Source: Catajapyx aquilonaris
Taxonomy: Eukaryota
DNA length: 57,349 bases
NCBI GenBank assembly: GCA_000934665.2
Contig: KZ538633.1
Location: 1-57,349 of the forward strand
Direction of reading: 5' to 3'
Positions 1 through 41,223 of the stretch are shown one piece after another; the stretch's first letter is position 1; every line of letters begins with the position of its first letter. The notes below the pieces were generated by a model. It did not search any database and was not told where the DNA came from. It worked only from the letters and a program-made list of their open reading frames with translations. The position numbers and the translations under genes are program-made.

Positions 1-171
1 TAATCCCATGGAGTATGAAAATGTATTATTTTTGGAACTTTAAGACGTCATAACTTTTGCAAATATGGACGTCAGCACGAAATATTTCATTTTTGGGTAT
101 CATATATTGTCCTGTATTAGCATGTCCAATTTCATCAAGATCCGTCATTATCACCCCGTGACCTTCCCTTG
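1..171. mobile_element. Right end of a CAAGGG-terminus TIR element (rest lies outside the window)
   Basis: Ends GTGACCTTCCCTTG followed by TCA. Its reverse complement matches the solo end at 34358-34445, and a similar end occurs at about 50942. Confidence 0.6.
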
Positions 172-1704
172 TCAGAAAGGTTGATATAATCGTATTCTAT
201 GGTTAATTTTAAAATTTAAAATTTTTGCGTTAAAAATATTGAAATTGCAAATTTTAAACATTTAATTTTTAAAATTATTACCCTTATTTTTCGCTGGTTT
301 TCACGTATGTTGTAGCCCTACATGTGAACTACATGTGGCCATATCAGTCCAGTTGGCTAGTATAATACTAAGGAAGATTGGGCCTCTTAAGCGAGACCAC
401 CTCCATATATGTCGTCATTATGATGGGTACACCCAACATGCAAATCGCCCCACCTTGCTCAGTGCAAATGTTGATATTCAAGTTGGGATGATCACTGGTG
501 AGAGTACGACACATGTAAGACTCCTTTGGTAGCCCACACCCCCCTCCCCAAGCAAACCCATGAGTCCCACCCCACAAACACAAATTGATTTGTCACTTGA
601 GAGGCGAAATCTCCCGTAATATGATACTAGCCAACATGACTGTTGTGCACACATGTAGACCACATATAGCACTACAACATAACTCAAAACCAGCGAAAAA
701 TAAAGGGGTATAATTTAAAATATTTAATGTTTCGATTTTAAAATTTAAACATTTTTAACAAACAAAATTTAAATTTCACATTTTACCATAGTGTACGCTT
801 CTACCAATATTTCTGAGTACAATGACACCAAATTCACTTCTGTATCTTGATTAGTTCCAGAGAAAAAGCCAAAAGAAGATGAAGAGTCTGTAACGAAATT
901 ATCACTCCCCCAAAATTCGGCAAAAATCAATATTTTCCAAAACACTTTGGTACAATGGTTTAGCGTCGCTGTGTCATCGAAAACCCAGAAAATCATAAAA
1001 ATCCGCCACATGAAGGGTCCAAACGGGGCCGACCTGACAAATCAATTTGTGTTTGTGGGGTGGGAGGCATGGGTTTGCTTGGGGAGGGGGGTGTGGGCTA
1101 CCAAAGGAGTCTTACATGACTGTGTCGTACTCTCACCAGTGATCATCCCAACTTGAATATCAACATTTGCACTGAGCAAGGTGGGGCGATTTTCATGTTG
1201 GGTGTACCCATCATAATGACGACATATATGGAGGTGGTCTCGCTTAAGAGGCCCAATCTTCCTTAGTATTATACTAGCCAACTGGACTGATATGGCCACA
1301 TGTAGGTCACATGTAGGGCTACAACATACGTGAAAACCAGCAAAAAATAAAGGGTAATAATTTTAAAAATTAAATGTTTAAAATTTGCAATTTCAATATT
1401 TTTAACGCAAAAATTTTAAATTTTAAAATTAACCATAGAATACGATTATATCAACCTTTCTGAGTAAATTGATATCAAAAGCACATCTGTCTCACGATTA
1501 GTTGCGGAGAAACAGACAAAAGAAAAATGGCTCTCAAAGAAAAGGCTCAAAATTACCACGCCCCAAAAAACAGGTAAAAATCAAAATATTTCAAAACGAT
1601 TTGGTACAATGTTTTAGCAGTGCTAGGTCACCATAACCTGTGAATATCATTCAAATCCGCCACATCAAGGGTACAAAGGGGGCCCAACTGACATGGAATG
1701 ACCC
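172..1704. mobile_element. Long-TIR fold-back DNA transposon (GGGTCATTCCA terminus, Sola2-like), left part outside the window
   Basis: 172-596 is a near-perfect inverse of about 1035-1463; 600-1040 is a diverged direct copy of 1240-1695; ends ...TGACATGGAATGACCC at 1704. Confidence 0.75.
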
Positions 1705-1959
1705 ACATAATTTATTTTTACAGTGGAAAGCATTGCTATATTTGTGACACTGGTTCAAGTGAAAACATGTACAACTAAAGGGCACCATTGTACCCATTTT
1801 TTTTGAGCAGGGAGTTTAGGCTTCCATGTTGGTCTATTACTCAAAGGTCCGCGTCAAGTATTTAATTGACATCCTCTACGATAAGTCCCTAAGTGTAGTA
1901 TGAAACACTTTTAACAATGCAATGGATATGTCTTCTTACAATGACATACATAATCTTAC

Positions 1960-2089
1960 CCATTAGTCTCAGATGAAGGAGCAGAAATGACAACATCACC
2001 AAGACGGACATGTTTGTTGTAATCAGTGTAATGTGGCACACCCCCACCAACACCAACCAGAAATACATACTCCACCTTCTGAAATGTAC
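1960..2089 (-). CDS. PNP-like gene exon (GTFQKVEYVFLVGVGGGVPHYTDYNKHVRLGDVVISAPSSETN)
   Basis: tttcag acceptor, gtaaga donor; carries the GxGGG...RLGDVV Pfs motif. Confidence 0.9.
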
Positions 2090-5000
2090 CTGAAATTTTG
2101 CAATTAATGCAGTTGTTTTTCAACAATGATCTGTTGGTGCCTTGCCTACCTAGTAGTCTAGTCGTAGTGTTGCCAGCAGCTATCATTGCTTCCCGTGTGT
2201 GACCAACTGTTGGTAACTTAGTACATACAACACGGTGAGAACCTATGTTGCCAAGTGTGTACACATTTGATTCTCCTGGAAAAATTGCCAATTTTAATAG
2301 CTGACATGTCCCAAAAAAATGCGAACATACCGACTGTGGTGTATCGGAAGAACGTTTCCTTATTTTCAATCATGGAATCAACTGCCATTTTTTCACAATA
2401 TTGAGCTGTGATAACAGCTATTGAAGGCTGCTTGGCACGTACAATTTTTGGCATTTGTTTCACAATCTGAAAGAGTGTTGCTGTAAGTTCACCAGGCTCT
2501 GAACTACTTTCCATAATGTCATACTTGAAGTTCTGTTTCATTCTGTACAATTCGAGTATATGTGCCATTATCCATCACTTTGATCAGGCCTTTCTGTGCA
2601 AGTTCATTCAAGTGTTCATCGATATCCTCCTGGCTACTCTGCGTTTGCCTAAAGAGAGGATATTCCTTGTAATGTTGTGACATACGAAGGATAACAATAC
2701 ATACCTTGCAATGTCATCAATAGATATTGGTGTTGGATAGGCTGACTCAATCATTTCCAAGACTTTTTCCTCAGTCAAAATCAACTTCCCAGAAAGTATA
2801 CTCTCATCCATAGATACTGTAAGCAACATAATTTCAAGTCATCGAGAACAAGACAGTAGGACAATATGGAGACAGCAGTCACTGTAATACAGGGTGATTA
2901 TCTCGAATGGAAACCAAGACATTCCTCAAAACGCTTTCACTATGGTATGGTTCCCGATGAAAATTGACATGTCCTTACCTTTTATGTTGGTAAACATGGT
3001 CCGACAAGAGAATAGACCGAAAATGGTCCCCTCCAACATCCAAGCGCTCTTGTTTGCGAGTCTGCATATTGGAGTATACAAGGTGTATAGTAGATAGCCC
3101 CCTAACGTGTCAGGGTGGGGGTTTCTGGCAACGCCCCCTCTTGCCCCCCGCCACTCCCTACCTCCTCTACACCCTACTTCCCACTGCCTTCTACGTCACA
3201 TCCCTCTGCCACGCAGACCTCTTAAGCCCTACTGCGATGACAATTAAACTTCGAAATATTGATTACATGAATTGTTGCGACACACATCTTAAAGCAAACC
3301 TTTAATGACAATATATGAACACAGTCATGTATTTCAAGCATCCGGAGGATCATCCGGTGAAAGTTCCGGTCACGTGTTCCGGTGAATGTCACTCATGCCC
3401 ACTTCATCTCGACTCGTCCATTCCCCTCATCCCAATCCAGGCACGCCATTGGCTGGGAGTGTTGGGTGGGTGGACTGACAAGTTAACCTGCCGGGGAGTA
3501 TATCTGGATCACTTTTGGACAGCTGCTATCTCCTGATAGCAGTTATTTTTTTGTAGCTTGTTGTGCCCCGATTCAGTTGCCCCATTCTATAGCACCTGCT
3601 CTATTCGACCCCCAGTGGTTCGCATATAGCAGACGATATAGAATGAGGCAACTGAATCAGGACACAACAAGCTACAAAAAATAACTGCTATTGGGAGATA
3701 GCAGTTATCCAAGAGTGACCCGGATACTTGATACACCCTGTACATGTGCTGTTGGGACATCATAATGGCAGCAAACTCCCACTGTATTGGGGCTAGAGGG
3801 CATCAATAATTGTTCTGGGCTTGATTCTGTATGTGTGACCCTTCAGTAAACCCTCAAGAAGAAATCAGGTGGCGTCAGGTCTGGCGATCTTGGGTGGCCA
3901 CAGATTTTTCGAAATTAAAGGGACACTCCACTCAAAATACAAGTTGGCCCGCAAAAATCGGAAAAAAAATCCTGATTCCGAATGTGCAATCGGTTTTTTT
4001 CTACGCCCAACGGTAACACGTAAAATCATATATCTACACACGTCGTCTGCTAAGGAGGGCGATACAACACCATCCCGCGGCAAACCGGAGAAGTATAGCG
4101 CGTACAACTGTAACAACTGCCGCGCCAGGCGCGCTAGGCAACACTAGCGCGCCAGCTTCGAGCGCTTTCGAGCCAAACCTGATGTGAAGGATGGCGGACC
4201 ACAGAAAGGTCGGGTCTGTTAGTGCACCCGATGTTTCGGCGGCTGGCTGTAGCTCTGACACAGGTAGAGTCCATCCCGGCGCCCTCGCACCTCCCCTGCG
4301 GCCCTACCAGTGCGAGCCTCCTGGATTCGCCTCCTGGATTCTCGGCACGACCCCCCTATTTTCAATCCCTGCCGATAGGTGGCGCAGGTGTCGTGAACAG
4401 TTGCATACGGTTCGAATACGTTCAGGTTTGAATTCGCGGGCAGAGCTGTACCTGCTCCATTTCCCATTCCTGCTGACAGGCGGTGAGGGTGTCGTGAACA
4501 GTAGCATACGGTTGCAACCGTATTGCCAAAATAAGCATAATGATCCGGTTCCCCTGGGGTCATCGTTCATCGGAAAAAAATCATTATTGGTGTCGTTGGA
4601 ATCGTATTGTTTTGCCCGATTTTTAGGGGCCAACTTGTATTTTGAATGGAGTGTCCCTTTAATAGGTCACCGAAGGTCTGGGCTCAGATCACCAGACCTG
4701 ATTTCTTCTTGTGGGGTTTACTGAAGGGTCACATATTCAGAATCAAGCCCAGAACAATTTATGCCTCTAGCGCTGATATGGTGGGAGTTTCTGCAATTAT
4801 GATGTCACATTGATACATATAAACTTATATGCCAATATGCAGTCTCACAAACAAATGTACTTGGATGCTGGAGGCGACCATCTTGGTCTATTCTCTAGGC
4901 AGAGCTTGTTTGGCAACATAGAAGGTAAGTACAGTCTGCTAAAGAATTACCTTTCCACACCAGGTCGAGAAATTAGCCTCCAACAGAGGTGGTGCCTCCC

Positions 5001-8000
5001 CCTGATGTAATGACTCGCACTCCTCTAGGTAGCACCTCTGTTGGAGGCTAATTTCTTGGCCAGGTGTGGAAAGGTCATCCTTTAGCCGACTGTACATGTC
5101 AATTTTCTTTGGGAACCATACAATAGTTAAAAAGTTATTGAGGAATGTTTGGGTTTCCAATCGAGAGAATCATCCTGTATCTATTGGGCAATTAATTCCC
5201 TTAGGCCTGTATATACCGTATAATGACTGCTTAAATCACAGTGTTGAGTAACTCCAGGTCAAGAGCAGAGGTGAACAGACTCGAGTTGGATCCACATACG
5301 TAACGAAAAACAAGTGTGTAGTTACCCGACTCCAACCATGGAACCATATCTCACTTTTCCTGGGTGTCATGACGACCTGTCCCCCAGTAGCTCCATAATA
5401 CTTTTTTCCAACTCAACTCTGCCCACTATCTTGGAATTCTCTTAACCTCTGCTGGACCTGACTGGGCTCAGCCACAACCTGGATTCACAGATACCAGTAC
5501 AGGTTATGCAGGTATAGGCAAGGTCTCTCAAAATAAAAACAAGGAGTATGGTTTTATGTCCTGCATGCGGTGTACAGGTTTAAAAATTATATCCCTCTTT
5601 CTTGAGAATCTACACTTTTCCCTGAGTGTAGTGCCCATCAGACTTGTCAGCTTGACTGTTAATTGAATACAAACACTTACGTGGTCTGTCTGCTGGTGCT
5701 TCACCCTCTTTCAACTGTTTCAACTCAACCTCCACTGTCTCCAGGTAAGGATAACGATGCTGCATTAATTTCATTATTTTTTTGATGAAACCTACATAAT
5801 CTGAAACACATCACTGGCATAAAAAAACAACAATTAATGTCAGACTTCACCTACTCTTATAGTGTTACCTCTTGGAAATTCCTGGGGACTGACTAGTTCT
5901 TTGAAAAAATCTTGAGCTGACTTGGCTTGTTCTGCCTCTGGAAAATCATTCTTAAACCAAAACCTTAGTTGTCTGCTCTCCTGTGTATGTGTATTGGTAT
6001 TTGCATTGACCAGGAAGACTTTAAATTCCAATGACAGGTGTGGAGGTACCTCTTCCTTATCTCCTGCAAATAAAGCAGTAAGTAAATCAGATAAGCCTGT
6101 TTGAAAGAAAAGAAGGATGGGTTTTTCTTATAATGTTAGAAGAAACTCATAAGCCCATCATAAAAATGAAACAACGATGGTTTTTTCATGGTTACATCTT
6201 GTCATCTGCTTCCCCTAACTTGAGCAGCATCAAGCAAATTGGCAAGAAAAAAAAAACAGGATAAAAATGAAAATATCCACACAAAGTACTTGGCCATGTG
6301 ACTGTAATGCAAGTATCCTAACTGGCAAAATACAAACTAATCCATATTAACTAATGCAACAAGATGCAATGAATACTCAGTGACAATTACATTGCCAACT
6401 AATAATAATGGGTTCCCAGGGCCACTTCTTTTGATCAAATGCACTTAGATGCCTCCCTTTATCATTATTAGAGGTGGTGTGAAAAACATCCACTTCTTTT
6501 GACGAGAATACGCCTTTAAAATCGGATCAGCATTGGGGGGACATGCAGGAAAAGTCAAACATTACAAATTCTGCCATTCTGCCATCCTGCCATTCTGAAC
6601 GAGAAGGTGAACTGGGCTGGTTCCACACTGGCCCGCCCTCTGTGCACCAGAAGGTGAACTTAGCTGGTTTCGCATCTGGCCGCTGTTACCACGGGGAGTT
6701 CATACCAAATATAGTAAACGTGTAATTATGTAACGGTAACAAAACATTATCACCAATTTTTGCAACAGTCGACTTTTCGTGCATGCCCCCCAATACTGAT
6801 CCAATTTTAAAGACGTATTCATGTCAAAAACCTGCGGCTTGTGTCACACAACCTAATGAAATATTTTTTCATTTATTGGTGATGTGGTTGTAGCTAAAAT
6901 CTACCTGTCCAGTAGAAGAAGCACATACTATTGCAGGGGTTGAAATATTCGGATGCAAAGGTGCAATTTGCACTCCAAACTGAGACTTGGAGTGCAACGT
7001 TTGTACTCCAAACTGAGACTTGGAGTACAACGGTTGCACTCCACTCTAAGGATTTTCGAGTGAAAATTTCACTCAAGAAATGAGGATTTTCGAAAAATGC
7101 TATATTTGAGTGACTTTCCCTTGGCGAAGATTTACTCTAACTCAAATTCTCCCTCCCTGCGGAATGAGGCAGGGAGGCTAATAAATGAAATAAGATATTT
7201 AACTCAAATCGAGTGGAAAAATACTCGAAATTTCTTAGAGTGCACAGTTAGTTCTGCTTTTAAACATTGATACACCCGGTAATTAAAAATTACCCACTCC
7301 AAGTAAGTAATTTGCACTCCACATGAAAGTTTGGAGTGCAAACTTGCACATGGACAAATAATTTAAGATTCAACCCCTGCTATTGATCTCTATTGAAATG
7401 CATGGGGCAATCATTATTATTATTGCAATACAACTATCATCATCAAGACGACTGGATTAGACTAACTAATCCTTACCATTTGCAACTTCCTTGTTGATGA
7501 CAATGCCAGCATGGTCTCCACCTGCAACATGCAGATTGCTGCTGTCAGCTGGCACTTGCATTTTTCTCCGCTCCATAAGAATAGTGGTGGAGCCTGCGCT
7601 TTTTTTTTTCGGTGTCATAACAATGTGTTCTGGAAAAGATCAGTTCATATATGGAGTAGCATTTCTCTTTTATAGTGTAGGAGATATTGACCATAAGCTC
7701 AATCAACTTTCATGATGTGTAATGCTTTTTCTCCTTGCATAAGGAAATTGCACGAGCACAAAATTAGGAATGATTTTTTTGCGAAGGTAGGGCTAATCTT
7801 ACATGAAAACTAAGGTGTTTTCTTCTTTTTCTTCTTAGAGATACAGGGACACCATAGTCTAGTTTCTGTAACATCATGCTTACTTGACCTGCAGCCTAAC
7901 CCTTAGTGGGTTAGGCTGCAGGGCTATTCAATTGGCGGACCGCGACACAATTTTGTCCGGACTGCGACAATATACAGGACAGTTTCAAATAGCATTAGCA

Positions 8001-11000
8001 ATTACTAATTCATGACTTTTTGAAAAAAGTGCTACCAATTTCATCAAATACACACCCATTCAAATCTCCCACATTCACCTAAGCTTGTGCGACCTTGAAC
8101 CCAAGAGCCTGTACAGGACATCATAAAGGGCGAAAATGTTTTAATATGTCCTGTCTTGATAGGCCCTTCTACCCTTGCTGCACATGTTTCTATTTTCAAA
8201 AACGAACCCTGTGGTACAATATAAAATCCATATCTGCACCCCCGNNNNNNNNNNNNNNNNNNNNNGGGGGGGGGGGGGGGGGGGGGGTCCGGACCTTCAA
8301 TGGCCCTGGAAAGGTAAATACTGGACCTTGTCATAATCTAGTTGAATAGCCCTGCACTAAGGTGTCATTGGTGACTGCTGGGAGAAGACAACTGAACCAG
8401 AAGTGGGATAATGCCATAAACTACTGTACGTCTTCGGAATCAGGATATAACAACCTGCCTGAATTGTTAAAAATTTCATAACAGAAAAACTTATCAAATG
8501 AAATAAAATAATATTGGCAGCTAGTCCAGATGTGAGCCACTTCTACGACTCATTTGACCTTCAAATATGAATTATACATTTTCCCCTGATGTCTATTATC
8601 AAGTGCATGTGTATAAAGTAAAGATGAGTAGTATGTTGTATTCACTTAGTTGATAAGAGGCAGTACACCTAGCATGCCAATGGGTAAGCTAACTGACCAT
8701 CTTCCTCTATCAGTGCCACTGCTCACTCCTTTAATGCTGAACCTATTTTCACAAGGAAAGTACTATGACTAGATTCATGCATGGCAATCGCTGATACTAC
8801 ATTATGGCTAGTAAGGAAGTCCAGAATATTTTGAAAGAGGCTTTACAAGATATTGAGATGAAGGATTGACACTGAGATAGTAAGTTGGTGTCAGACCCAA
8901 AGTACTTGGGGAAAGGAAGGAATCAAAATGCTTGTTTAAAAATGGGACTCTAACACATGCAGGCTGGTTATTGCATGAAAAAGGCATTTTAAATTCTTTG
9001 ATATATGATATGGATGTGTATTGTTTCTAATCACTATAACCTAGTAATAGAACAGAAAACCATGCATTTGCCCGTTCACTTGCAACAACCACTGCAGCAA
9101 AAATCAATAGATGAACAGGGACATCAATTATTATAATCCACAAGATACTATAACGTCACACATCTGTCCAGGAAACCTGACATATCAATAATTAAAACAT
9201 ATGATATGAGCAGGTTCACCTGAAACCACTTTCAAAACTCCACCAACTTCTCCTAATGGGGATAGAAAAGAAGGTGAAGCTGTTCACGATCATTTTGTCA
9301 TGTAGCTTTGGACCTAAACCATTCCTTAAGGCCCACAACTATATCAATGAACAATTATAAATAGATGCACTTTTTAAAGTGAATTTAACCTTTACTGTCC
9401 CATCACCTACAAACTGTTATGGACACTGCCATGGTTTTCTTTACATGTTACTGTAGAATGTGTTGCACAATAGCCAACTACTCTGGTACCAATACTCTAC
9501 TGAGATGCAGTATTTATACACAGTGTGTTCCAAGCATCCGGGTCCTTTTAGTTATCACTAATTTTGCCTGAAGACGTTATTTTTGTGCAGCTTTTTGTGC
9601 CCCTATCAAGGTAGTCTACCTCATTATTCCCAGGTGTTGGTGAATATATGACTGTAGAAAATTGGGCACCATGATTGTGGCACAAAAAGCTACACAAAAA
9701 TAAAAACGTAAGGCAAACTTTGTTGCAACTAAAACGACCCAGATGCTTGGAACAGACTGTATAATTATGTATTTATTTTAGTTTTATTACCCCATTAAGA
9801 GCCAACAATACTTTAGTGGGACACATTCACTACCTATGTAGTACAAGTCTGGAAGCCAGAATTGATGGCGATTGTGTAATGCATTCTATGAGGGAGGTAC
9901 CAAAATGATTTACAATTTGTCTTTTGCCACAGACACAACGCCCATGCAGGTCGAAAAATAGGCACACATTATAGATAAAATCCTCCTGAAGCAGAATTCA
10001 CTGGTACTGGCACTGGTCAACCTCTCCAGGCCGTCCAGGAACCACTTTTTGGTGGTGCGGCGCACCGACTCCCGGACAACTCTTCACAGTCAACAATGTC
10101 CTCGAAATGGCATCGACGACGGGACTTTTTAAATATATTTGAACAGATGAAAGTCACTGGATGCACGGCCATGGTTGCCTAGTGGCTATTCTACTGGCCA
10201 GCCAAGCAGGAGGTCCGGGGTTCAAATCCCGTCCATGTCAGGCAGTCTCCTTCGTTGGTTGGGTCTTTTTCCAATTTTCACCCAACATGCAATTGAAGAG
10301 TCCAGGGGAAAAAGGGGGAATGTCACACAAAAAATGTTCATGAGAAATCGAAGAAATTGCTTTATTTCTTCACGTGTATAAGGAATAATAGGGATATCTT
10401 CACTTCATTATATGCAACTGTCCCCCTTGTACCCATGGAAAGCCTCCAGGTATAAGTGGCACCTACGGTACTATTGTACTGTGCACTTGGCAGGAACCCC
10501 AATGGAATTTGACATTCCCCCTTTTTTCCCTGGACTCTTCAATTGCACTCCCTTCTCTGCCCAGGGCCAAGAGAAAATCTCTGGTATATTTAAAGGAACA
10601 CTCCACTCAAAACACAAGTTGGGTTCTAAAAATCCTGATTCCGAGGCTACAAGCAGTTTTTCTGAGAGATGAACGGTAAGGCCAGGGTGAAAGCTGGAAG
10701 TGTGAAAACCGCACGCGGCGCAGGTGGCGACGCCACCAGGAGTGGAACCGGGCAGAACTAGACAAGGGGATGGCGCGAATTAAAGGTGCAGTCCCCCCCG
10801 AGCTAAGTGATGCCTTCTCCGCACCGTTGGGGCTTCTGACTGCCTCAGCCTCCATATCAGGTGACGCACTCTCTTTTTTCCATGATATTCGGTCCCGGAA
10901 CAGTCCCGTCCATCCGTGTGGTTTGCCGGCTGGCCGCAAGAAGGGGTTTTGTCGCCACCACTCGCTGCGCAGGAGACTATTATTTTACGAATCTGACCTC

Positions 11001-12130
11001 TCGTCCTGGCCTTACCGTTCGTCTCTCAAAAAAACTGCTTATACCCTCGGAATCTGAATTTTTAGTCCGATTTTTAAAGCCCAACTTGTATTTTGAGTGG
11101 AGTGTCCCTTTAAGAGGGTCAGAAATGACTACTTAAGAACGCCCTCCCTTGGGAACTCCCCCCCCCCCCCCCCNCCCCAAGAGGGCCCCTGGCCCTATCA
11201 CAGGATATTACAAACAAAGAAACAAACAAAGTCACTGGAGGCCAGGCCAGGGGAGTACGGTGGGTGTGGGCGAAGCACAGTGGCGTCGCTAGTGTTGTTG
11301 TCACCCGGTGTGGCAACTCGTGGTGTCATCCACACCCCTCCACACCCCTGGCCCAAGGGCCAGGACCCTCTCCCGTGCCCGACCGTACAGAATACTAGGT
11401 TTTTTTAAAGTACTAATGAAGCTCTCATGTATATCATTGATTGCCATGTGAATAGTTGTCATGAAAAGAACCAAATTTAAAAGTGTACACCTTTAAATTA
11501 TTTCCGTAGTTTCCTGTGTTTAAGTGAAAATTCTCGATAAACAATAACATAATTTGGTGCAAATAAATAAATAAATATAAAATTAGGAAATAATTTTTTT
11601 ACAATCACTTGGGTGTCACCCCCTTTGAGGGTGTCACCTGGTGCGGTCCGCACCCCCCGCACCTGCCTAGCGACGCCACTGACGAAGCACTCAAAGCAAG
11701 ATCAAAGAAAAATTTCGTTCGCCGTCGCCATTTTAAGGACATTGTTGACAGTTGCTGACTGAGCAGTTGTGCGGTAGTAGGTGCATTGCACCTCCAAAAA
11801 GTGGTTCCTAGGGGGCCTGGAGAGGTTGCCACATCCATGACTCCTGTGCATTCGGCTCTGGGAGGGTTCTGTCGATAGTGTGTGCCTATTTGCTGACCTG
11901 CATAGTCCCAGTATTTTCGACAAAAAAAAATTGTAAATACTTTTGGTATGGCCCTCGTACAATGATACAGAAGAGAACCTCCACAATGGTCCATAACTTT
12001 CTGCAGCAAAGTCTGTATATCAAAATCAGACAATAATCACCTTCGAGGGAGTACTGTTCCTATTGGCTACAAATAGAACTGATAAGACATTTAACAAATG
12101 GTGGTATTTACCTTGAGAATGATCACCCAT
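1960..12130 (-). CDS. Multi-exon gene, 3'-partial (continues left of window): N-terminal domain + winged-helix-like segment + Pfs/PNP_UDP_1-type nucleoside phosphorylase-like domain
   Basis: GT-AG exons with consistent phases: 12130-12112, 7629-7477, 6063(or 6096)-5869, 5800-5681, 2816-2705, 2648-2525, 2466-2331, 2275-2150, 2089-1960. Spliced protein: MGDHSQEHIVMTPKKK...LEFKVFLVN...LRFWFK...DYVGFIKKIMKLMQ...LTEEKVLEMIESAYPTPISIDDIAR...LNELAQKGLIKVMDNGTYTR...IAVITAQYCEKMAVDSM...NVYTLGNIGSHRVVCTKLP...VFLVGVGGGVPHY...VRLGDVVISAP. The last motifs match the PNP/Pfs fold. Confidence 0.88.
2150..2275 (-). CDS. PNP-like gene exon (GESNVYTLGNIGSHRVVCTKLPTVGHTREAMIAAGNTTTRLL)
   Basis: tttttccag acceptor, gtagg donor, phase 1-1. 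Confidence 0.9.
2331..2466 (-). CDS. PNP-like gene exon (IVKQMPKIVRAKQPSIAVITAQYCEKMAVDSMIENKETFFRYTTV)
   Basis: ctttcag acceptor, gtatgt donor, phase 0-1. Confidence 0.9.
2525..2648 (-). CDS. PNP-like gene exon, winged-helix part (QTQSSQEDIDEHLNELAQKGLIKVMDNGTYTRIVQNETELQ)
   Basis: ctctttag acceptor, gtatga donor, phase 2-0; LxxLxxxGLI wHTH-like pattern. Confidence 0.85.
2705..2816 (-). CDS. PNP-like gene exon (SMDESILSGKLILTEEKVLEMIESAYPTPISIDDIA)
   Basis: ttacag acceptor, gtatgt donor, phase 1-2. Confidence 0.85.
3079..3740. mobile_element. TA-flanked hairpin MITE, interrupted by a further insertion at about 3098-3496
   Basis: TA|CAAGGTGTAT...ATACACCCTG|TA; arms 3501-3610/3617-3727; related to 9521-9759. 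Confidence 0.65.
3919..4658. mobile_element. Kolobok-like non-autonomous element
   Basis: TTAA|AGGGACACTCCA...TGGAGTGTCCCT|TTAA. Confidence 0.8.
5681..5800 (-). CDS. PNP-like gene exon (DYVGFIKKIMKLMQHRYPYLETVEVELKQLKEGEAPADRP)
   Basis: tttcag acceptor, gtaagt donor, phase 1-1. Confidence 0.85.
5869..6063 (-). CDS. PNP-like gene exon (GDKEEVPPHLSLEFKVFLVN...QDFFKELVSPQEFPR); alternative in-frame acceptor extends it to 6096
   Basis: tttgcag acceptor at 6064-6065 or aacag at 6097-6098, gtaac donor, open frame. Confidence 0.8.
6472..6854. mobile_element. Diverged hairpin MITE
   Basis: About 95-bp imperfect inverted arms (6472-6567 / 6760-6854). Confidence 0.6.
6934..7379. mobile_element. hAT-like MITE with 6-bp TSD, containing an inner CACTCTAAG-terminus MITE (7042-7242)
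   Basis: CTATTG|CAGGGGTTGAA...TTCAACCCCTG|CTATTG; TGCACTCCA subterminal repeats. Confidence 0.7.
7477..7629 (-). CDS. PNP-like gene exon (EHIVMTPKKKSAGSTTILMERRKMQVPADSSNLHVAGGDHAGIVINKEVAN)
   Basis: cttttccag acceptor, gtaagg donor, 153 nt, phase 1-1, open and in frame with both neighbours. Confidence 0.65.
7919..8354. mobile_element. hAT-like non-autonomous element
   Basis: CAGGGCTATTCAA / TTGAATAGCCCTG TIRs; no clear TSD; contains N-run 8245-8265. Confidence 0.6.
9521..9759. mobile_element. Tc1/mariner-type hairpin MITE
   Basis: CAGTGTGTTCCAAGCATC / GATGCTTGGAACAGACTG|TA, about 80-bp arms. Confidence 0.7.
10167..10260 (+). mobile_element. tRNA-derived SINE head fragment
   Basis: A-box-like TGCCTAGTGG and B-box GGTTCAAATCC at tRNA spacing; no intact cloverleaf. 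Confidence 0.55.
10288..10547. mobile_element. Small MITE
   Basis: About 38-bp TIR TGCAATTGAAGAGTCCAGGG... Confidence 0.65.
10594..11109. mobile_element. Kolobok-like non-autonomous element (same TIR family as 3919-4658)
   Basis: TTAA|AGGAACACTCCACTCAAAA...TGGAGTGTCCCT|TTAA. Confidence 0.8.
11278..11681. mobile_element. hAT-type non-autonomous element
   Basis: CAGTGGCGTCGCTAG TIRs; 8-bp TSD GCGAAGCA/ACGAAGCA. Confidence 0.8.
12112..12130 (-). CDS. Probable initiation exon (MGDHSQ); whole exon 12226-12112 is mostly 5' UTR
   Basis: Strong polypyrimidine acceptor tttctctttttcag, AAG|gtaaat donor, ATG in good context (ATCATGG), phase 1 matches the next exon. Confidence 0.55.
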
Positions 12131-33357: not shown

Positions 33358-36300
33358 GTCATCATTATTCATGCATCGTCGTCGCATGGAATACTGCATT
33401 GATAAAAGAATGACCTGACAACTGACACATTTGCAGCTCGGCCAACACGCATCACAGATAATTGTGCGACATCGTAAAGATACACAAATTCCAAGTCTGA
33501 AAAATGCCCCTGACCTTGGGCTTATTAGCCGACGAAGCCCACGTAATCTGTCTCTCTTTCCCATTTAACCATCCGGACACATACGACTCCCCCAGCTCTG
33601 ATCTGGTCTCCATCCTTCGCGTGCTCTCCCCATCCCCCCACCCTCCCAGTCTTGGCTCCCGAAGCACCTCTAATAGCGGCAGGGATCGTCACCAGCACGT
33701 CAGTTTCTGCCGGCTGATGATGGGCGGCGGTATAAATACCCATAACCTCGGGCCAATACATTTGCCGGCCATAGTACAGTACCCCTGCAAGCAGCACCCT
33801 GTGGCCAGGCAGGCAGGGTCGAATGTGCAATAAATCATGCCCAATCTTCCACCCACGCTTGCACTGGTGCTGCATTCCGGAGCACAGGGCTATTTTTTCC
33901 AATAGTGTACCCTGTCAGTGGCAAAATAAATGTATAAATGAAATGTTTTGCTTACCTGGCTCCATTAGACTCGATACAACCATTCCAGCTGCACTTCACA
34001 ATATTGCATACTGTAGTTATAGATTTTTTCATGAAACAAAGTATTTGAGTCAATAAGTTACTTTCCAATTATTAGGTGAAAGACACTTCATGTGTGAAGA
34101 CTGTGGGAAGAATTTCAGCGTGAAGTGGTCACTTGATCTGCATAGACTGGCACATAAGGGCTCACGACCTCACAGGTGTACCAAGTGTCCCCGGTCATTC
34201 ACAGCCAAGAAGGATCTTATGCGGCATCAATCAGTTCATTCTGGTAAGATCCTCACATGCAGTTCAAATGAAAATTTAAATGAAAGTGTTATCCAACTTC
34301 CACTTACAGTTAGCTGGTATTACACCACGTGAAAGTTGCAATTTAAGACACATCTCACAAGGGACATTTTCCGAGTGATAATGACGGATCTTTATGAAAC
34401 TAAACATGCTAATAGAGGACAATATGTGATAGGCAAAAATTCTTAGAAAGGCTTGAACTCTCACTTGGTACAGTTATCCAGACATATGAGGATCACTTGT
34501 TAAGCGATAGTCGTCTGGCATTAGCCCGCTCAACTCGCTATACCTTTTATTGGGACTTAGTTCCTGAATCTCACCCGGTGTGCAGTGCCGCATTAACCCA
34601 TGGCTGGGCCCCTAGGCTTCGAGCTTCTTTGGGCCCCTGCCCCAAACACACCCCCCCACACCCCCCACGCGAATTTCACGCTCTCCTTCCGTACCATTTA
34701 TTACAATATTACACATGAAGAAATTAATGGAGTAACAAAGAAAATAATATCTCATAAAACAACCTTTAATTAGCATTAACCAAAGCAATACGTATTCTGG
34801 GACTGTAGCCTACTGTGAAGGTTAACATATAGGCCTACATAATATTATGTACCTGGCTACTGAAACATTTTTCTCAGTAGGCTAATCTTTCAACAAACTG
34901 ATCCAGAACATTGTTGAAATTTAATTTCCGGAGCACACATGATTCTACGTGCATTATTGCCAAATGGTTGAGCTTTTCATCTTTCAGAGCGATAAGCAGG
35001 TAATTCTTAATACGCTTCAGAGCAGAAAAAGACCCCCTCGCCAGAACAGTTTGTGACGAGATGTGACACGTACATGCGTATACAACCCCCGGAGATGGAG
35101 CCAAATACCCCAAACTTTTACAAAGAGAGGGCCCGCCGCGGGCGAAATTTTTTTGGGGGTTCAAGTAACACTTTTAAAAAAAAGTTGCACACTTGCATGG
35201 GCGATGGGCCCCTGCTTTTGGTGGGCCCCTAGGCTTCAGCCTATATAGCCTTGTGGATAATGCGGCCCTGCCAGTGTGGTATACTGGACTGAGCCTACCA
35301 CTGCCGATCACTAGGATGTTTGCCAATCTCAGACATAGGCAAAGCAAAGAATTCCACGCAAAACAAACTTCCCCCCTAAAGAGCCGATGGCTGATAACGG
35401 GGTATGAATTATTACATGGTGTGTCTGAAAAGTAATGTGAATGTTGCAATGGAAGCAAGAAAACAGAAAGTACATAGGAATTACCTTTATTGGTCTTCAA
35501 AGTTCTCTCCATCAAACACAATTCACACAACACACTTTTGAAATCATTCATAAGGCTTCTTAGAAGAGTTAGAAAAAAAATTCTTTGGACCCCCCCCCCT
35601 CCCCCCCTCCAGATCTGTTGTCACAAGGCTGTGCACGTGAACGTCCACAAAGCGTGATCCTTTCATTAAGGAGAGGTAAACCAAATACAGTCCACAGGAG
35701 AAAGGTCAGGGGAGTACAGTGTGTGATCCGAAACAATGATACCACACTGAACTTCAAAGGATTCATGAAGAGATCACGTTTTGTGGACGTGGAGATTCAG
35801 GCCCGTGTGGCAACAGGTCTGGAAGGGCGTCCAAAGATAAATTTTGCACACTCTCTTCAGAAGCTTTACAGGCGATTTCAAAAGTGTGTTGTGTCTGATG
35901 GAGAACATTTTGAAGGCCAATAAAGGTAATTCCTATGTACCTTCTGTTTTCTTGCTTCCATTGAAACATTCACCGGACTTTTCAGACACACCATGTATGT
36001 GCACATTGGTAATTAAAGTGTGTAATCACGGCTTGGATGATATGATCACATCTTAAAAACTTGCTGTTGCAGAGCTCCGCCCATTTACCTGTGAGATTTG
36101 CAGTACAGCCTTTCGCCGGAAGGACAACCTAGAGCGTCATGTACGACACACACATTTGGAAGGGTTACAGGAAACTTCAAATGGGGCTCATCTGGCTAAG
36201 AAAACCAAGACTGCACCAGATACCATGGCTGTACAGAAGAGTGTGATACGGTGTCCAGATGACATTAGGTTGGGAAACACATCAATGCATACAGCATGTG

Positions 36301-36560
36301 AGCACACAAAGACTTCTACTCCAGTAAAATGTATGAAAAATGACACCAGCAAAACATCTGAAGCAGAACAATGCAAAGTGTTGTCAATCAAGCCGGAAGG
36401 AGTTGTGAATGCACTGGCTGCTGCTTATAGTGACCATCAAGTTGCAGAAATGCCTGAGGCAGATACAAATTCCACATCCGTTCGAGAGAAAGTGTTGTCA
36501 GATAGTGCTAGGCCAACTCATGTTATCATCGAACCAAGGAAGCATAGGCCATTATCATAA
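22649..36560 (+). CDS. Zinc-finger protein gene: N-terminal Rols/TANC-like RING-type Cys cluster + 8 fingers (1 C2HC, 7 C2H2); 5'-most coding exon(s) uncertain
   Basis: Phase-1 GT-AG exons 22649-22786, 23041-23226, 24402-24572, 25251-25334, 27688-27855, 34076-34243, 36073-36560 (TAA) join into one open frame with TGEKP-type linkers (GEKPY, GERPH, GERHF, ELRPF). AATAAA at 36873-36878. Confidence 0.9.
23041..23226 (+). CDS. ZNF exon, linker with basic NLS-like KKRRK
   Basis: tttag acceptor, gtaagt donor, open frame, phase 1-1. Confidence 0.75.
24402..24572 (+). CDS. ZNF exon, fingers 1 (C2HC) and 2
   Basis: [49 protein letters not shown]. Confidence 0.92.
24584..25193. mobile_element. Kolobok-like TTAA element with an inner 109-bp MITE (24658-24766)
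   Basis: TTAA|AGCGGCGCAGTA...TACTGCGCTGCC|TTAA; inner perfect 33-bp IR GGGCTGAATCTTCG... flanked by ATA. Confidence 0.75.
25251..25334 (+). CDS. ZNF exon, finger 3
   Basis: [28 protein letters not shown], 84 nt. Confidence 0.92.
25663..26779 (+). mobile_element. mariner deletion derivative
   Basis: TA|CGAGGG...CCCTCG|TA; transposase remnant [16 protein letters not shown]...[20 protein letters not shown] at about 25930-26123. Confidence 0.85.
26210..26759. mobile_element. Tc1/mariner superfamily (Tc2/pogo-like) MITE inserted in the right TIR of the mariner
   Basis: TA|CCGTATTTACTCGCATATAAGAC...inverse|TA; TGCGTCTTATA repeats. Confidence 0.85.
26844..27056. mobile_element. Palindromic MITE with AATT TSD
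   Basis: AATT|.TGCCGTCAGAT...ATCTGACGGCAG|AATT; relative at 52553-52777. Confidence 0.8.
27688..27855 (+). CDS. ZNF exon, fingers 4-5
   Basis: [23 protein letters not shown]...[23 protein letters not shown], 168 nt. Confidence 0.92.
28718..30038. mobile_element. Fold-back element with 651-bp arms, CAC termini, TAA TSD (Chapaev3/CACTA-like)
   Basis: TAA|CACAGCGC...GCGCTGTG|TAA; arms 28718-29368 and 29388-30038. Confidence 0.85.
30686..31055 (-). mobile_element. Truncated Kolobok-like element related to 24584-25193
   Basis: TTAA|GGGGGCGCAG; inverse homology to about 24810-25070. Confidence 0.65.
31703..31801. mobile_element. Tiny palindromic MITE flanked by GTAC
   Basis: GTAC|TATATCGCTCAAAAA...TTTTTGAGCGATATA|GTAC. 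Confidence 0.7.
31831..33773. mobile_element. 1.9-kb fold-back element flanked by GTAC, (GAT)n in each arm, central TA MITE 32699-32909
   Basis: GTAC|TATGGC...GCCATA|GTAC; colinear inverted arms of about 870 bp outside the central MITE. Confidence 0.85.
34076..34243 (+). CDS. ZNF exon, fingers 6-7
   Basis: [23 protein letters not shown]...[23 protein letters not shown], 168 nt. Confidence 0.92.
34358..34445. mobile_element. Solo end of the CAAGGG family
   Basis: CTCA|CAAGGG...GTGATAATGACGGATCTT matches the inverse of 85-171. Confidence 0.6.
34583..35270 (-). mobile_element. hAT deletion derivative with dimerisation-domain remnant
   Basis: 8-bp [47 protein letters not shown]...[11 protein letters not shown] at about 34874-35050. 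Confidence 0.85.
35415..35995. mobile_element. mariner-derived fold-back MITE
   Basis: TA|CATGGTGTGTCTGAAAAGT...|[23 protein letters not shown] in the right arm and a degenerate inverse copy in the left arm. Confidence 0.8.
36073..36560 (+). CDS. ZNF terminal exon, finger 8 + low-complexity tail
   Basis: [24 protein letters not shown], then open to TAA at 36558-36560. Confidence 0.88.
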
Positions 36561-36996: not shown

Positions 36997-37905
36997 TGGC
37001 CACGCCGACATGTATGGCACCACCCTTGCACCTCATCGATCCCGCCAAGGACGTCTCCTCTACTCGCCGGAGCGAAGGAAGCCTTATCCTCAGACCTATT
37101 TACCCATTAATTAACCTATGCAATAATACACCTATCCAAACAAACAACCTTAGCCTCAGCCACATCCATGGTCCTATTGACACAAGAACGTCTCGGCTTA
37201 ACACTAGCAACACCCTTAAGACACTGACCCACCTGGTCCAACCATGTCTTCCTAGGCCAACCCTTGCCCCTCTTACCAACTACTCCATCCAAATAAACCT
37301 TCACAATCTCCTCCTCATTCATCCTCTCCACATGGCCAAACCACCATAGAGCAGACCTACTTATCTTTAACAGTCTCCTTAACATTACACCTCTGAAAAA
37401 TCTCCTCATTCCTAATCCTATCCAACTTGGTAACCCCACAAACAGCCCGGAGATAGCGCATCTCTGTAGCCAACACCCTACTCTTATGCCTATCTGACCA
37501 AACCCACGCTTCACTACCATACATAAGTGAAGGAACAATAACGTGAGAATAGACAGACAACCTACAGGCAGAAGATAAGTCCTTACTTCTAGAAAACTTA
37601 CTTTTGTGGCACCTATTACTTTCAACCCAGAACTAACTCTCCTGTCTATCTCCCCTGTCTATCTCCCCATCCATTCTACCATTACTCTCAGGTATACAAA
37701 CTGACTGACCTGCTCAACCAGTTTTCCTCATGCCTGCAACATACAAGGACAAACCTGACAGTGTCCTCTTTCAATTACCAACACCTTAGTCTTATCTACG
37801 TTAATCCTCATACCATTCTTTTCACAAACATTATCTAACTTGCCTAGGATCAACTGTAAATCAGCCTCACTCTGCGCCAGAAGGGCAGAATCATCTGCAT
37901 TTAGT
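36997..37905 (-). mobile_element. 5'-truncated, frameshifted RTE-clade LINE (RT C-terminal half)
   Basis: ADD..L..SEADLQ, GMRINVDKTKV, PSLMYGSEAW, EMRYLRAVCGVTKLDRIRNEEI, LWWFGHVERM, GKRGKGWPRKTW spread over three frames. Confidence 0.9.
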
Positions 37906-40032: not shown

Positions 40033-41223
40033 GCACTGCTCTGGGCAGGAAAATATTGGAATGGGTGAACCTGGTCATTTCCACATGGGACAACTTGGCC
40101 ACGCCTTCTAATATGTACTATCCATAGGGGAGGGACCAAACCTTACCAGAAGCATAGAATCTATGAAATGGGAACTTGGCCACTCCAAGGCGACACGGGG
40201 ATGAACTTGGCCACATGTTTTTAAACCAAAGAAATTGTGAATTGGGTGGTAGATAAGTGGTTCTGGATATCACATGTTATATTTCTTCTGCGCGAACATT
40301 TAACCGTCCATACTGATGCAGTACCGGTACTTACATTTTAGTCCTACCCACCCTGCAGGGCCGCAGGACTACATGGTCACATCTACTGGAGTAAGAAACC
40401 TGACCCGATAATCTGTGTTATTGTCACAATTTGTGATACATGCTGTGGTACTCACAGGTTGTGCGTGGCAAAGGGGAGCGCGTGATGATCCCACGCATAC
40501 CTCTCATCCCGAGTGACTACCCCTTCCAGTTCAGACGCCTGCAGTTCCATGTCAAACTGTGCTTTACCATTACCATCAACAAGGCACAAGGGCAATCCCT
40601 CGGAGTGGCGGGGATAGATTTGAGGGAGCCATGTTTCTCCCATGGCCAATTTTATGTAGCATGTTCCAGAGTTAGCACTAGAAACAACCTGTACTTATAT
40701 GCACCTCCCACAGGCAAGACCCGAAATGTTGTGTATAAAGAGGTGCTGACATAATGGGGTACTTTTAACTTTCATTTTTGTCATCAAAATGTTTACGTGG
40801 CCTGTGTTTTCTCTCTTGCTGACAGTGTTCATGTCTTTTTCGATTCTCTGATGTGGTGCTTGCTGTTTTGTACATTTGTAAATTTTTTGTATCCTACATA
40901 CAGTGTTAGTCGTACAGAAATAATTGTTGCCAAGGTATGGTGTCCTTTGCATCTCATTATGCTCTTAATTTTTGAAGATGTCCTTTTGGGCACCAACATG
41001 GTGATTTATTCTCTCTGCATACAGACCTATACAGAAAATGTCTTTGTTGTGTGGTTTCCCTTCTTTGCCAATTATGTTCCTGCGTAGTACATTTGCGTTC
41101 TGTTGGAATCTGTCTCTGCGATATGTTCTAACAGGCTTGTAAGGTGTTTAAAATTTTGCTCTTCCCCAATTCCCCCCCCCCCTCCCCGCCCCAATTTCCC
41201 TCCCCCCTCCCCCCGATGTATCT

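Follow-up and report, generated by a model that had tools for sequence, protein, structure and literature searches.

Does a winged helix joined to a Pfs-type nucleosidase domain make an animal protein a sensor coupled to the cleavage of ATP, or has a nucleosidase of the bacterial defence type been put to another use? This question is raised by a minus-strand gene in a stretch of 57,349 nucleotides (nt) from Catajapyx aquilonaris (GenBank assembly GCA_000934665.2, contig KZ538633.1, positions 1 to 57,349), the whole of which is referred to as the window. When exons 10-12 from another contig were added to the nine exons of the window, the gene comprised 12 exons and 1767 nt in a frame free of stops, encoding 588 amino acids (aa). 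The protein consists of an N-terminal domain of ~160 aa (about aa 8-170), a winged helix matching Pfam HTH_69, and a C-terminal Pfs domain with the fold of 5'-methylthioadenosine/S-adenosylhomocysteine (MTA/SAH) nucleosidase (MTAN).

Among animals, this family, which has members in flies and worms, has been put forward in print as a candidate immune effector that depletes ATP. Rousset et al. (10.1101/2023.01.24.525353) described CG12065, the Apis protein A0A7M7MVF0, and H14E04.2 as arthropod and nematode proteins of the Cap17 clade, termed their extra domain Z-alpha-like, and speculated that (d)ATP is degraded upon encounter with foreign nucleic acid. The original prediction, which was made from the window alone and knew of no functional description, was consequently anticipated by that report both in the family and in the speculation. 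Judged from its sequence, the window protein is very probably an orthologue of the CG12065/H14E04.2 family. Our best explanation, which we hold tentatively, is that the protostome ancestor already had a Cap17-clade enzyme as a fixed, conserved gene, and that its product is now a domesticated purine N-glycoside hydrolase, regulated without nucleic acids, whose substrate pocket is altered and whose role is constitutive. New here are the evidence against the Z-alpha idea, the wider range of the family, the rebuilding of the pocket, and the presence of an as yet uncharacterised domain at the N-terminus.

Active site of the Pfs domain

The three nucleosidase motifs that the original prediction had noticed downstream of a winged-helix-like segment were located at aa 268, 301, and 350 of the spliced protein. 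Alignment to E. coli MtnN paired E277 with E12, D527 with E172, S528 with M173, E529 with E174, R549 with R193, and D553 with D197. The catalytic Glu, Arg, and Asp (E277, R549, and D553) were accordingly all present, including the C-terminal ones on which the original prediction depended; R549 and D553 are encoded by the exons on the second contig. In MTAN, the residue of the Asp197 type protonates the leaving base, Glu12 and Arg193 position the attacking water, and M173 and E174 bind the sugar. The titles of Protein Data Bank (PDB) entries for MTAN E12Q and D197N substrate complexes are consistent with these catalytic roles, and a search of the open literature turned up no paper dealing with what M173 and E174 do in MTAN.

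Residues were tallied over 103 non-redundant family rows, counting the non-gap rows at each position. The E277 position was Glu in all 102 rows and the D553 position was Asp in 100 of 102, as is expected of catalysis, and Arg or Lys occupied position 549 in 96 of 102. At the sugar site, Met was found at the M173 position in 1 of 101 family rows (1 of 36 in a smaller animal set), whereas the prokaryotic rows had it in all 77 and the fungal rows in 12 of 16. The E174 position (529) was Glu in 73, Asp in 13, Gly in 13, and another residue in 3 of 102 family rows, being replaced by Gly, Asp, Asn, or His in 29; most nematode rows have Gly there, and the Met-Glu pair was kept by all 77 prokaryotic rows. 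The window protein, with D527-S528-E529, lacks the [E/D]-M-E sugar-site motif. Furthermore, five basic residues conserved in the family (K278, R293, K317, R337, and K405) were mostly missing in relatives. As far as these alignments tell, the bond-breaking residues are retained and the sugar pocket is rebuilt, from E-M-E to D-x-[E/D/G].

An ant orthologue, 64% identical to the window protein, served as the structural stand-in, with a predicted local confidence (pLDDT) of 88.8 and a predicted overall fold score (pTM) of 0.89. Its C-terminal domain best matched MTAN (Z 23.7, root-mean-square deviation (rmsd) 3.3, 224 residues aligned), and phosphorylases reached Z 18.7 at most. Profile searches of the PDB arrived at MTAN with E values of 0.12 and 4e-4. 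Searching PDB sequences with one orthologue yielded only Gly-linker noise.

Clade of the catalytic domain

The original prediction had set the domain among Pfs-type nucleosidases of the Cap17 kind, unlike housekeeping PNP, MTAP, or uridine phosphorylase, and this placement was borne out by profiles and trees. The orthologues matched the PADLOC PDC-M60C and CBASS 'PN-superfamily' effector profiles weakly (E about 1e-5 to 1e-7); from its receiver-plus-PNP layout, we infer that PDC-M60C is DtcC. In a FastTree of 129 rows, all 36 animal rows, including arthropods and nematodes, formed one branch (support 100) within a branch of fungal Pfs, prokaryotic, and Cap17- and DtcC-like sequences (95), apart from MtnN, DeoD, and Udp. 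In a 43-row IQ-TREE, the split from MTAN, DeoD, and Udp and the grouping of the 11 animal rows each received an ultrafast bootstrap (UFBoot) of 100, and the approximately unbiased (AU) test rejected an animal-plus-MTAN clade (p=0.031, 43 rows). Tree support was obtained with LG+G4 or FastTree. The Cap17 and DtcC rows were the best matches to the PADLOC profiles (E 2.8e-135 and 2.2e-107) and are distinct from the assayed enzymes; the trees excluded a plasmid match split over two annotated open reading frames, and the 129-row tree also omitted P0131 (truncated) and P0178 (chimeric). The long insert that marks the defence clade was also present (median 123 aa, as against 54 aa). On this evidence the protein belongs by descent to the Cap17/Pfs clade, which does not imply that it works like Cap17.

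Scanning of genomes led to 191 confirmed relatives in prokaryotes, of which 80 loci were kept, at about 30% identity. Among the 40 nearest of these that were scanned for domains, 21 had another Pfam domain besides, in most cases one typical of conflict systems (NB-ARC/NACHT, ROCO, CATRA, TIR, EAD, VMAP, and TPR or HEAT types). The fusions to the PNP domain included leucine-rich repeat (LRR)-ROCO (L027, L032, and L048), CATRA (L038, L047, L058, and L062), an archaeal DEAD-box helicase (L031), and TIR with a bifunctional nuclease (L030). Fungal P0203, P0211, P0216, P0217, P0223, and P0236 carry a tandem pair of Pfs domains, some copies of which lack the Glu equivalent to E12.

Spread of the family and position of the Catajapyx gene

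The window protein showed 54-64% global identity to the full-length rows among its 120 best matches. A profile search (30 named of the best 150 rows) and two further searches found members in insects, springtails, crustaceans, chelicerates, a tardigrade, a priapulid, nematodes, and a nematomorph, as well as in flatworms, Seison, molluscs, nemerteans, a brachiopod, and a bryozoan; family proteins of Apis, many Drosophila species, and Caenorhabditis were among those returned. No deuterostome or cnidarian occurred among the named matches in lists of the best 120-150 rows, many of these rows being unnamed, so that absence from those groups does not follow. The isoforms mostly traced to one locus per species, with exceptions including Limulus, Tachypleus, Panagrellus, and molluscs. 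The ant and bee proteins are 85% identical, and the gene trees broadly track animal groups. By these sequence comparisons, the family extends across protostomes, is conserved, and mostly occupies a single locus.

The label of an insect gene, given by the original prediction, was not established. The window protein, in a gene tree of 38 rows, fell outside the 14-row clade of winged insects (SH-aLRT 100), inside Pancrustacea (99), and beside a springtail (94).

In molluscs and nemerteans there is a further paralogue, in which a PF12248 domain follows the N-terminal domain and precedes the winged helix; rows of this type are P0139, P0141, P0146, P0150, and about 40 further ones. The host genome contains three other PF01048 loci (C3197, C1083, and C1340), presumably housekeeping phosphorylases.

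Winged helix and N-terminal domain

In Z-alpha domains, NxxxY in helix 3 is needed for function and pPxW in the wing is involved (PMC11298590). The window protein has neither NxxxY/F nor PxW. Among 100 family rows, NxxxY/F was present in one, a misaligned calpain-named chimera, and PxW in none. The window winged helix carries a charge of -7 over the domain and -4 over helix 3; among 78 main-type family rows, the domain was net acidic in 70 and helix 3 in 66. The conserved residues of the domain (E197, Y200, P201, N202, R243, and the core residues L193 and L227) lie nearly all off the exposed face of helix 3.

In structural comparison, the winged helix of the ant model aligned with Z-alpha domains (1sfu, Z 9.2, rmsd 2.5, 64 residues aligned; 3irq, 8.8; 4wcg, 8.7; 4kmf, 8.7), yet these scores were tied with those of IdeR-, MarR-, and BirA-type winged helices (Z 8.7-9.4). 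The Pfam z-alpha family was absent from the best 25 of 30 families for 62 family members. Because the Z-alpha residues are missing and the domain is acidic, the main-type winged helix is unlikely to be a Z-nucleic-acid sensor, and the nucleic-acid binding envisaged by the original prediction found no support. The PF12248-type paralogue, in which the winged helix is net basic in 22 of 22 rows, may bind nucleic acid.

The N-terminal domain was modelled alone from a related orthologue fragment (pLDDT 87.9). Its best structural matches were ribosomal eS1-type chains (Z 5.8), followed by SPFH and pterin-enzyme chains (Z 4.7 or below). Foldseek found no match at E<=0.001 in the PDB or viral libraries, and neither a Pfam family nor an Atlas match was obtained. 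The N-terminal domain thus gave no clear match, which does not prove a new fold. The single-chain pTM of the ant model points to fixed positions of the three domains relative to one another. Pfam detected no NACHT or NB-ARC nucleoside triphosphatase (NTPase) and no repeats in six orthologues, and the 588-aa model has no space for them.

Proposed function and alternative explanations

If the activity is that of a regulated purine N-glycoside hydrolase, D553 would protonate the leaving base while E277 and R549 would set the attacking water, as in MTAN. With the sugar pocket rebuilt, the preferred substrate would probably be an adenine nucleotide or a derivative of one, with a turnover that is slower than, or otherwise unlike, that of ATP in Cap17. 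Probably the acidic winged helix and the N-terminal domain are packed against the catalytic domain, with gating via protein or small-molecule contacts rather than via DNA or Z-RNA. The role would probably be constitutive, metabolic or signalling. This reading is favoured by the intact frame at a single locus, the MTAN-type fold, the retained E277, D553, and R/K549 positions beside the lost Met, the acidic winged helix lacking Z-alpha motifs, the pTM of the ant model, and gene trees that broadly track animal groups, as well as by the findings on CG12065 and the H14E04.2 cassette exon among the published observations that follow. CG12065 is expressed in S2 cells and alternatively spliced under B52 regulation (PMC4274639); its ubiquitous knockdown left pupae that could be measured and altered the diet response of body (pupal) size (PMC13232497). 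H14E04.2 has a cassette exon regulated by developmental stage (PMC2265522) and is lowered in a worm amyloid model (PMC11363564).

Several points weigh against the hydrolase with an altered pocket and a constitutive role. Both assayed eukaryotic relatives, a fungal one and a sponge domain, are ATP nucleosidases (10.1101/2023.01.24.525353), and the window protein itself retains E529. The basic winged helix of the PF12248-type paralogue also speaks against it. The knockdown counts for little, since 68% of the candidates in that screen affect some size trait (PMC13232497). CG12065 is among the top 50 lipopolysaccharide (LPS)-responsive SUMO-enriched proteins, with a ratio of 2.86 (PMC4592996), and it marks ovarian stretched cells, which share a haemocyte signature (PMC7205450); these two observations leave room for immunity. 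Drosophila rows were returned by our searches, none of them named CG12065, and a cross-check for predicted SUMO sites found no motif. The orthology of the window gene to CG12065 is drawn from the description by Rousset et al., and a search mainly of the open literature found no enzyme assay or functional test of the family.

One alternative is an immune (d)ATP nucleosidase restrained by its N-terminal module and triggered during infection by something other than Z-nucleic acid, for example a protein or glycan. It is favoured by membership of the Cap17/Pfs clade, by the extra, mostly conflict-type domains of 21 of the 40 scanned prokaryotic relatives, by the PF12248 insertion in molluscan and nemertean paralogues, and by the LPS-SUMO listing. 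Arms-race genes are typically unlike single-locus, strongly conserved genes, and here there is mostly one strongly conserved locus per species; the ribose motif is also remodelled, down to Gly at the E174 position in most nematode rows. The remodelled motif and the slow, mostly single-locus evolution together disfavour a plain ATP-depleting effector, and we regard the immune nucleosidase as unlikely. That nearly all rows have lost M173 and 29 of them have replaced E174 would, along with the five family-specific basic residues, suit a pseudoenzyme or very slow enzyme serving as a purine-nucleotide-binding scaffold or sensor; the near-invariance of the E12 and D197 equivalents argues otherwise and makes this a doubtful explanation. 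More speculatively, and with little expectation that it holds in full, the protein may be a protostome nucleotide-cleaving switch derived from bacterial defence, in which the input is taken by the ~160-aa domain, lengthened in molluscs by the PF12248 domain, rather than by a Z-alpha domain, the rebuilt pocket accepts a special adenine nucleotide (for example a cyclic or ADP-ribosyl one), and a so far unrecognised arm of invertebrate immune or nutrient signalling is served.

Coupling of a Z-DNA or Z-RNA sensor to ATP cleavage, a Z-form version of the nucleic-acid sensing put forward by the original prediction and by Rousset et al., draws on the alignment of the winged helix with Z-alpha domains as well as on the speculation in print. 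Given the tied scores, the missing NxxxY/F and PxW, the acidic helix 3, and the absence of Pfam z-alpha among the best families, it is very improbable. A housekeeping MTA/SAH nucleosidase like bacterial MTAN would fit the closest solved folds, which are MTANs, and the constitutive expression in fly cells (PMC4274639); with the UFBoot separation, the AU result against an animal-plus-MTAN clade, the defence-clade insert, and three other PF01048 loci in the host, it appears highly improbable.

Gene structure and other features of the window

All introns between exons 1 and 9 (from the ATG at 12130 down to 1960) are GT-AG with consistent phases, and tblastn with orthologues backed exons 2-9 (best E 2.6e-57). 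Exon 1 (12112..12130, minus strand like the rest; 19 nt, aa 1-6) was assigned from its ATG, GT donor, and phase only. The N-terminal domain is encoded by exon 2 (7477..7629; first part, a beta hairpin; tblastn E 1.4e-13 against the springtail orthologue), exon 3 (5869..6096; core), and exon 4 (5681..5800; end). Exon 5 (2705..2816; HTH_69 E 3.9e-07) encodes helices 1-2 of the winged helix, and exon 6 (2525..2648; HTH_69 E 7e-05) encodes the acidic helix 3 and the wing. The Pfs/PNP domain starts in exon 7 (2331..2466), which contains E277, the equivalent of MtnN E12, and continues through exon 8 (2150..2275) and exon 9 (1960..2089), the latter with the Gly-rich strand and the GD motif; exons 3, 4, 8, and 9 were placed with orthologues by tblastn.

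Leftward completion of the gene within the window, as the original prediction had proposed, failed: tblastn found no exon left of position 1960, intron 9 (1..1959) continues past the contig end, and window position 1 is base 1 of contig C1137. The last three exons lie on contig C2557 (minus strand; 30243-30120, 28929-28736, and 25689-25389) and contain D527-S528-E529, R549, D553, and the stop. When the genome was searched with a springtail orthologue, 11 matches came up, of which 8 lie in the window and the other 3 on C2557, each covering a different part of the query; all 11 belong to one gene, so that one copy was found in this fragmented assembly. Exon 9 ends in phase 2, the phase in which exon 10 starts. 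We infer the C1137-C2557 join from exon order and phase rather than from an overlap of sequence. The end of C2557 shares a repeat, in inverted orientation, with window 1-187 and 1455-1705; the assembly therefore probably broke within the repeat-rich intron 9, the related repeat being the likely cause.

Cassette-exon isoforms exist in orthologues of other species. No tblastn match with 386 proteins indicated a cassette exon in introns 1, 2, 4, or 9, and a simple splice scan found no open phase-1 candidate in intron 4. Intron 8 (2090-2149; 60 nt) is in frame and stop-free, and its retention would add 20 aa to the catalytic core; mite and thrips database proteins keep an intron at this position, which may be mere annotation error. 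Intron 9 contains nested long inverted repeats at 172-1463 (307 nt at 89% and 120 nt at 98%) resembling miniature inverted-repeat transposable elements. More nested inverted-repeat elements lie in introns 1, 3, and 4 (2887-5180, 3808-4759, 6497-6829, 9517-9763, and 10590-11113), one family being present at both 3914-4663 and 10590-11113.

Elsewhere in the window, C2H2 zinc-finger exons were found at 34057-34329 and 36057-36557 (plus strand; Pfam E 7e-10 and 8e-06). A helicase C-terminal fragment at 40437-40751 (plus strand; Herpes_Helicase E 0.009) presumably resembles Helitron or Pif1 ends, and two overlapping frames at 37116-37658 (minus strand), with no Pfam match, resemble the C-terminus of an RTE-type retroelement protein.

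Comparison with known systems

CG12065, H14E04.2, and A0A7M7MVF0 have the same winged helix followed by a Cap17-clade PNP domain, an architecture identical to that of the window protein; the Catajapyx copy is an intact orthologue and otherwise nothing special. In the portion of the account by Rousset et al. available to us, the N-terminal domain, the spiralian spread, and the altered ribose motif are not mentioned. The age and range of the family exceed what has been reported, and no prokaryotic relative examined has the same sugar pocket, so that substrates beyond ATP are worth considering.

Compared with the Z-alpha domains of ADAR1, ZBP1, E3L, and PKZ, the family shares the winged-helix fold (Z 8.7-9.2) but not NxxxY, PxW, or, being acidic, the surface. 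It has the fold and the E12, R193, and D197 equivalents in common with MTAN, and differs in its separate branch, the lost M173, the long insert, and two extra domains. The closest non-animal relatives are fungal Pfs proteins of the NOD-like receptor (NLR) type, known as HET-Q-like, and prokaryotic PNP domains fused to NLR, ROCO, or CATRA modules (about 30% identity; E down to 1e-54); these share the long insert, whereas the window protein has no NTPase or repeat domains, and HTH_69 was found in none of the 40 prokaryotic and 9 fungal relatives scanned. With CBASS Cap17 and Detocs DtcC, the family forms a common branch apart from the housekeeping enzymes and shares the catalytic Glu and Asp. 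Cap17 and DtcC keep [E/D]-M-E and are mobile bacterial defence genes with known triggers, whereas the window gene lacks the Met, has introns, and is conserved. If nucleotide cleavage is indeed under the control of the N-terminal domain, this family would represent a bacterial defence enzyme tamed by animals.

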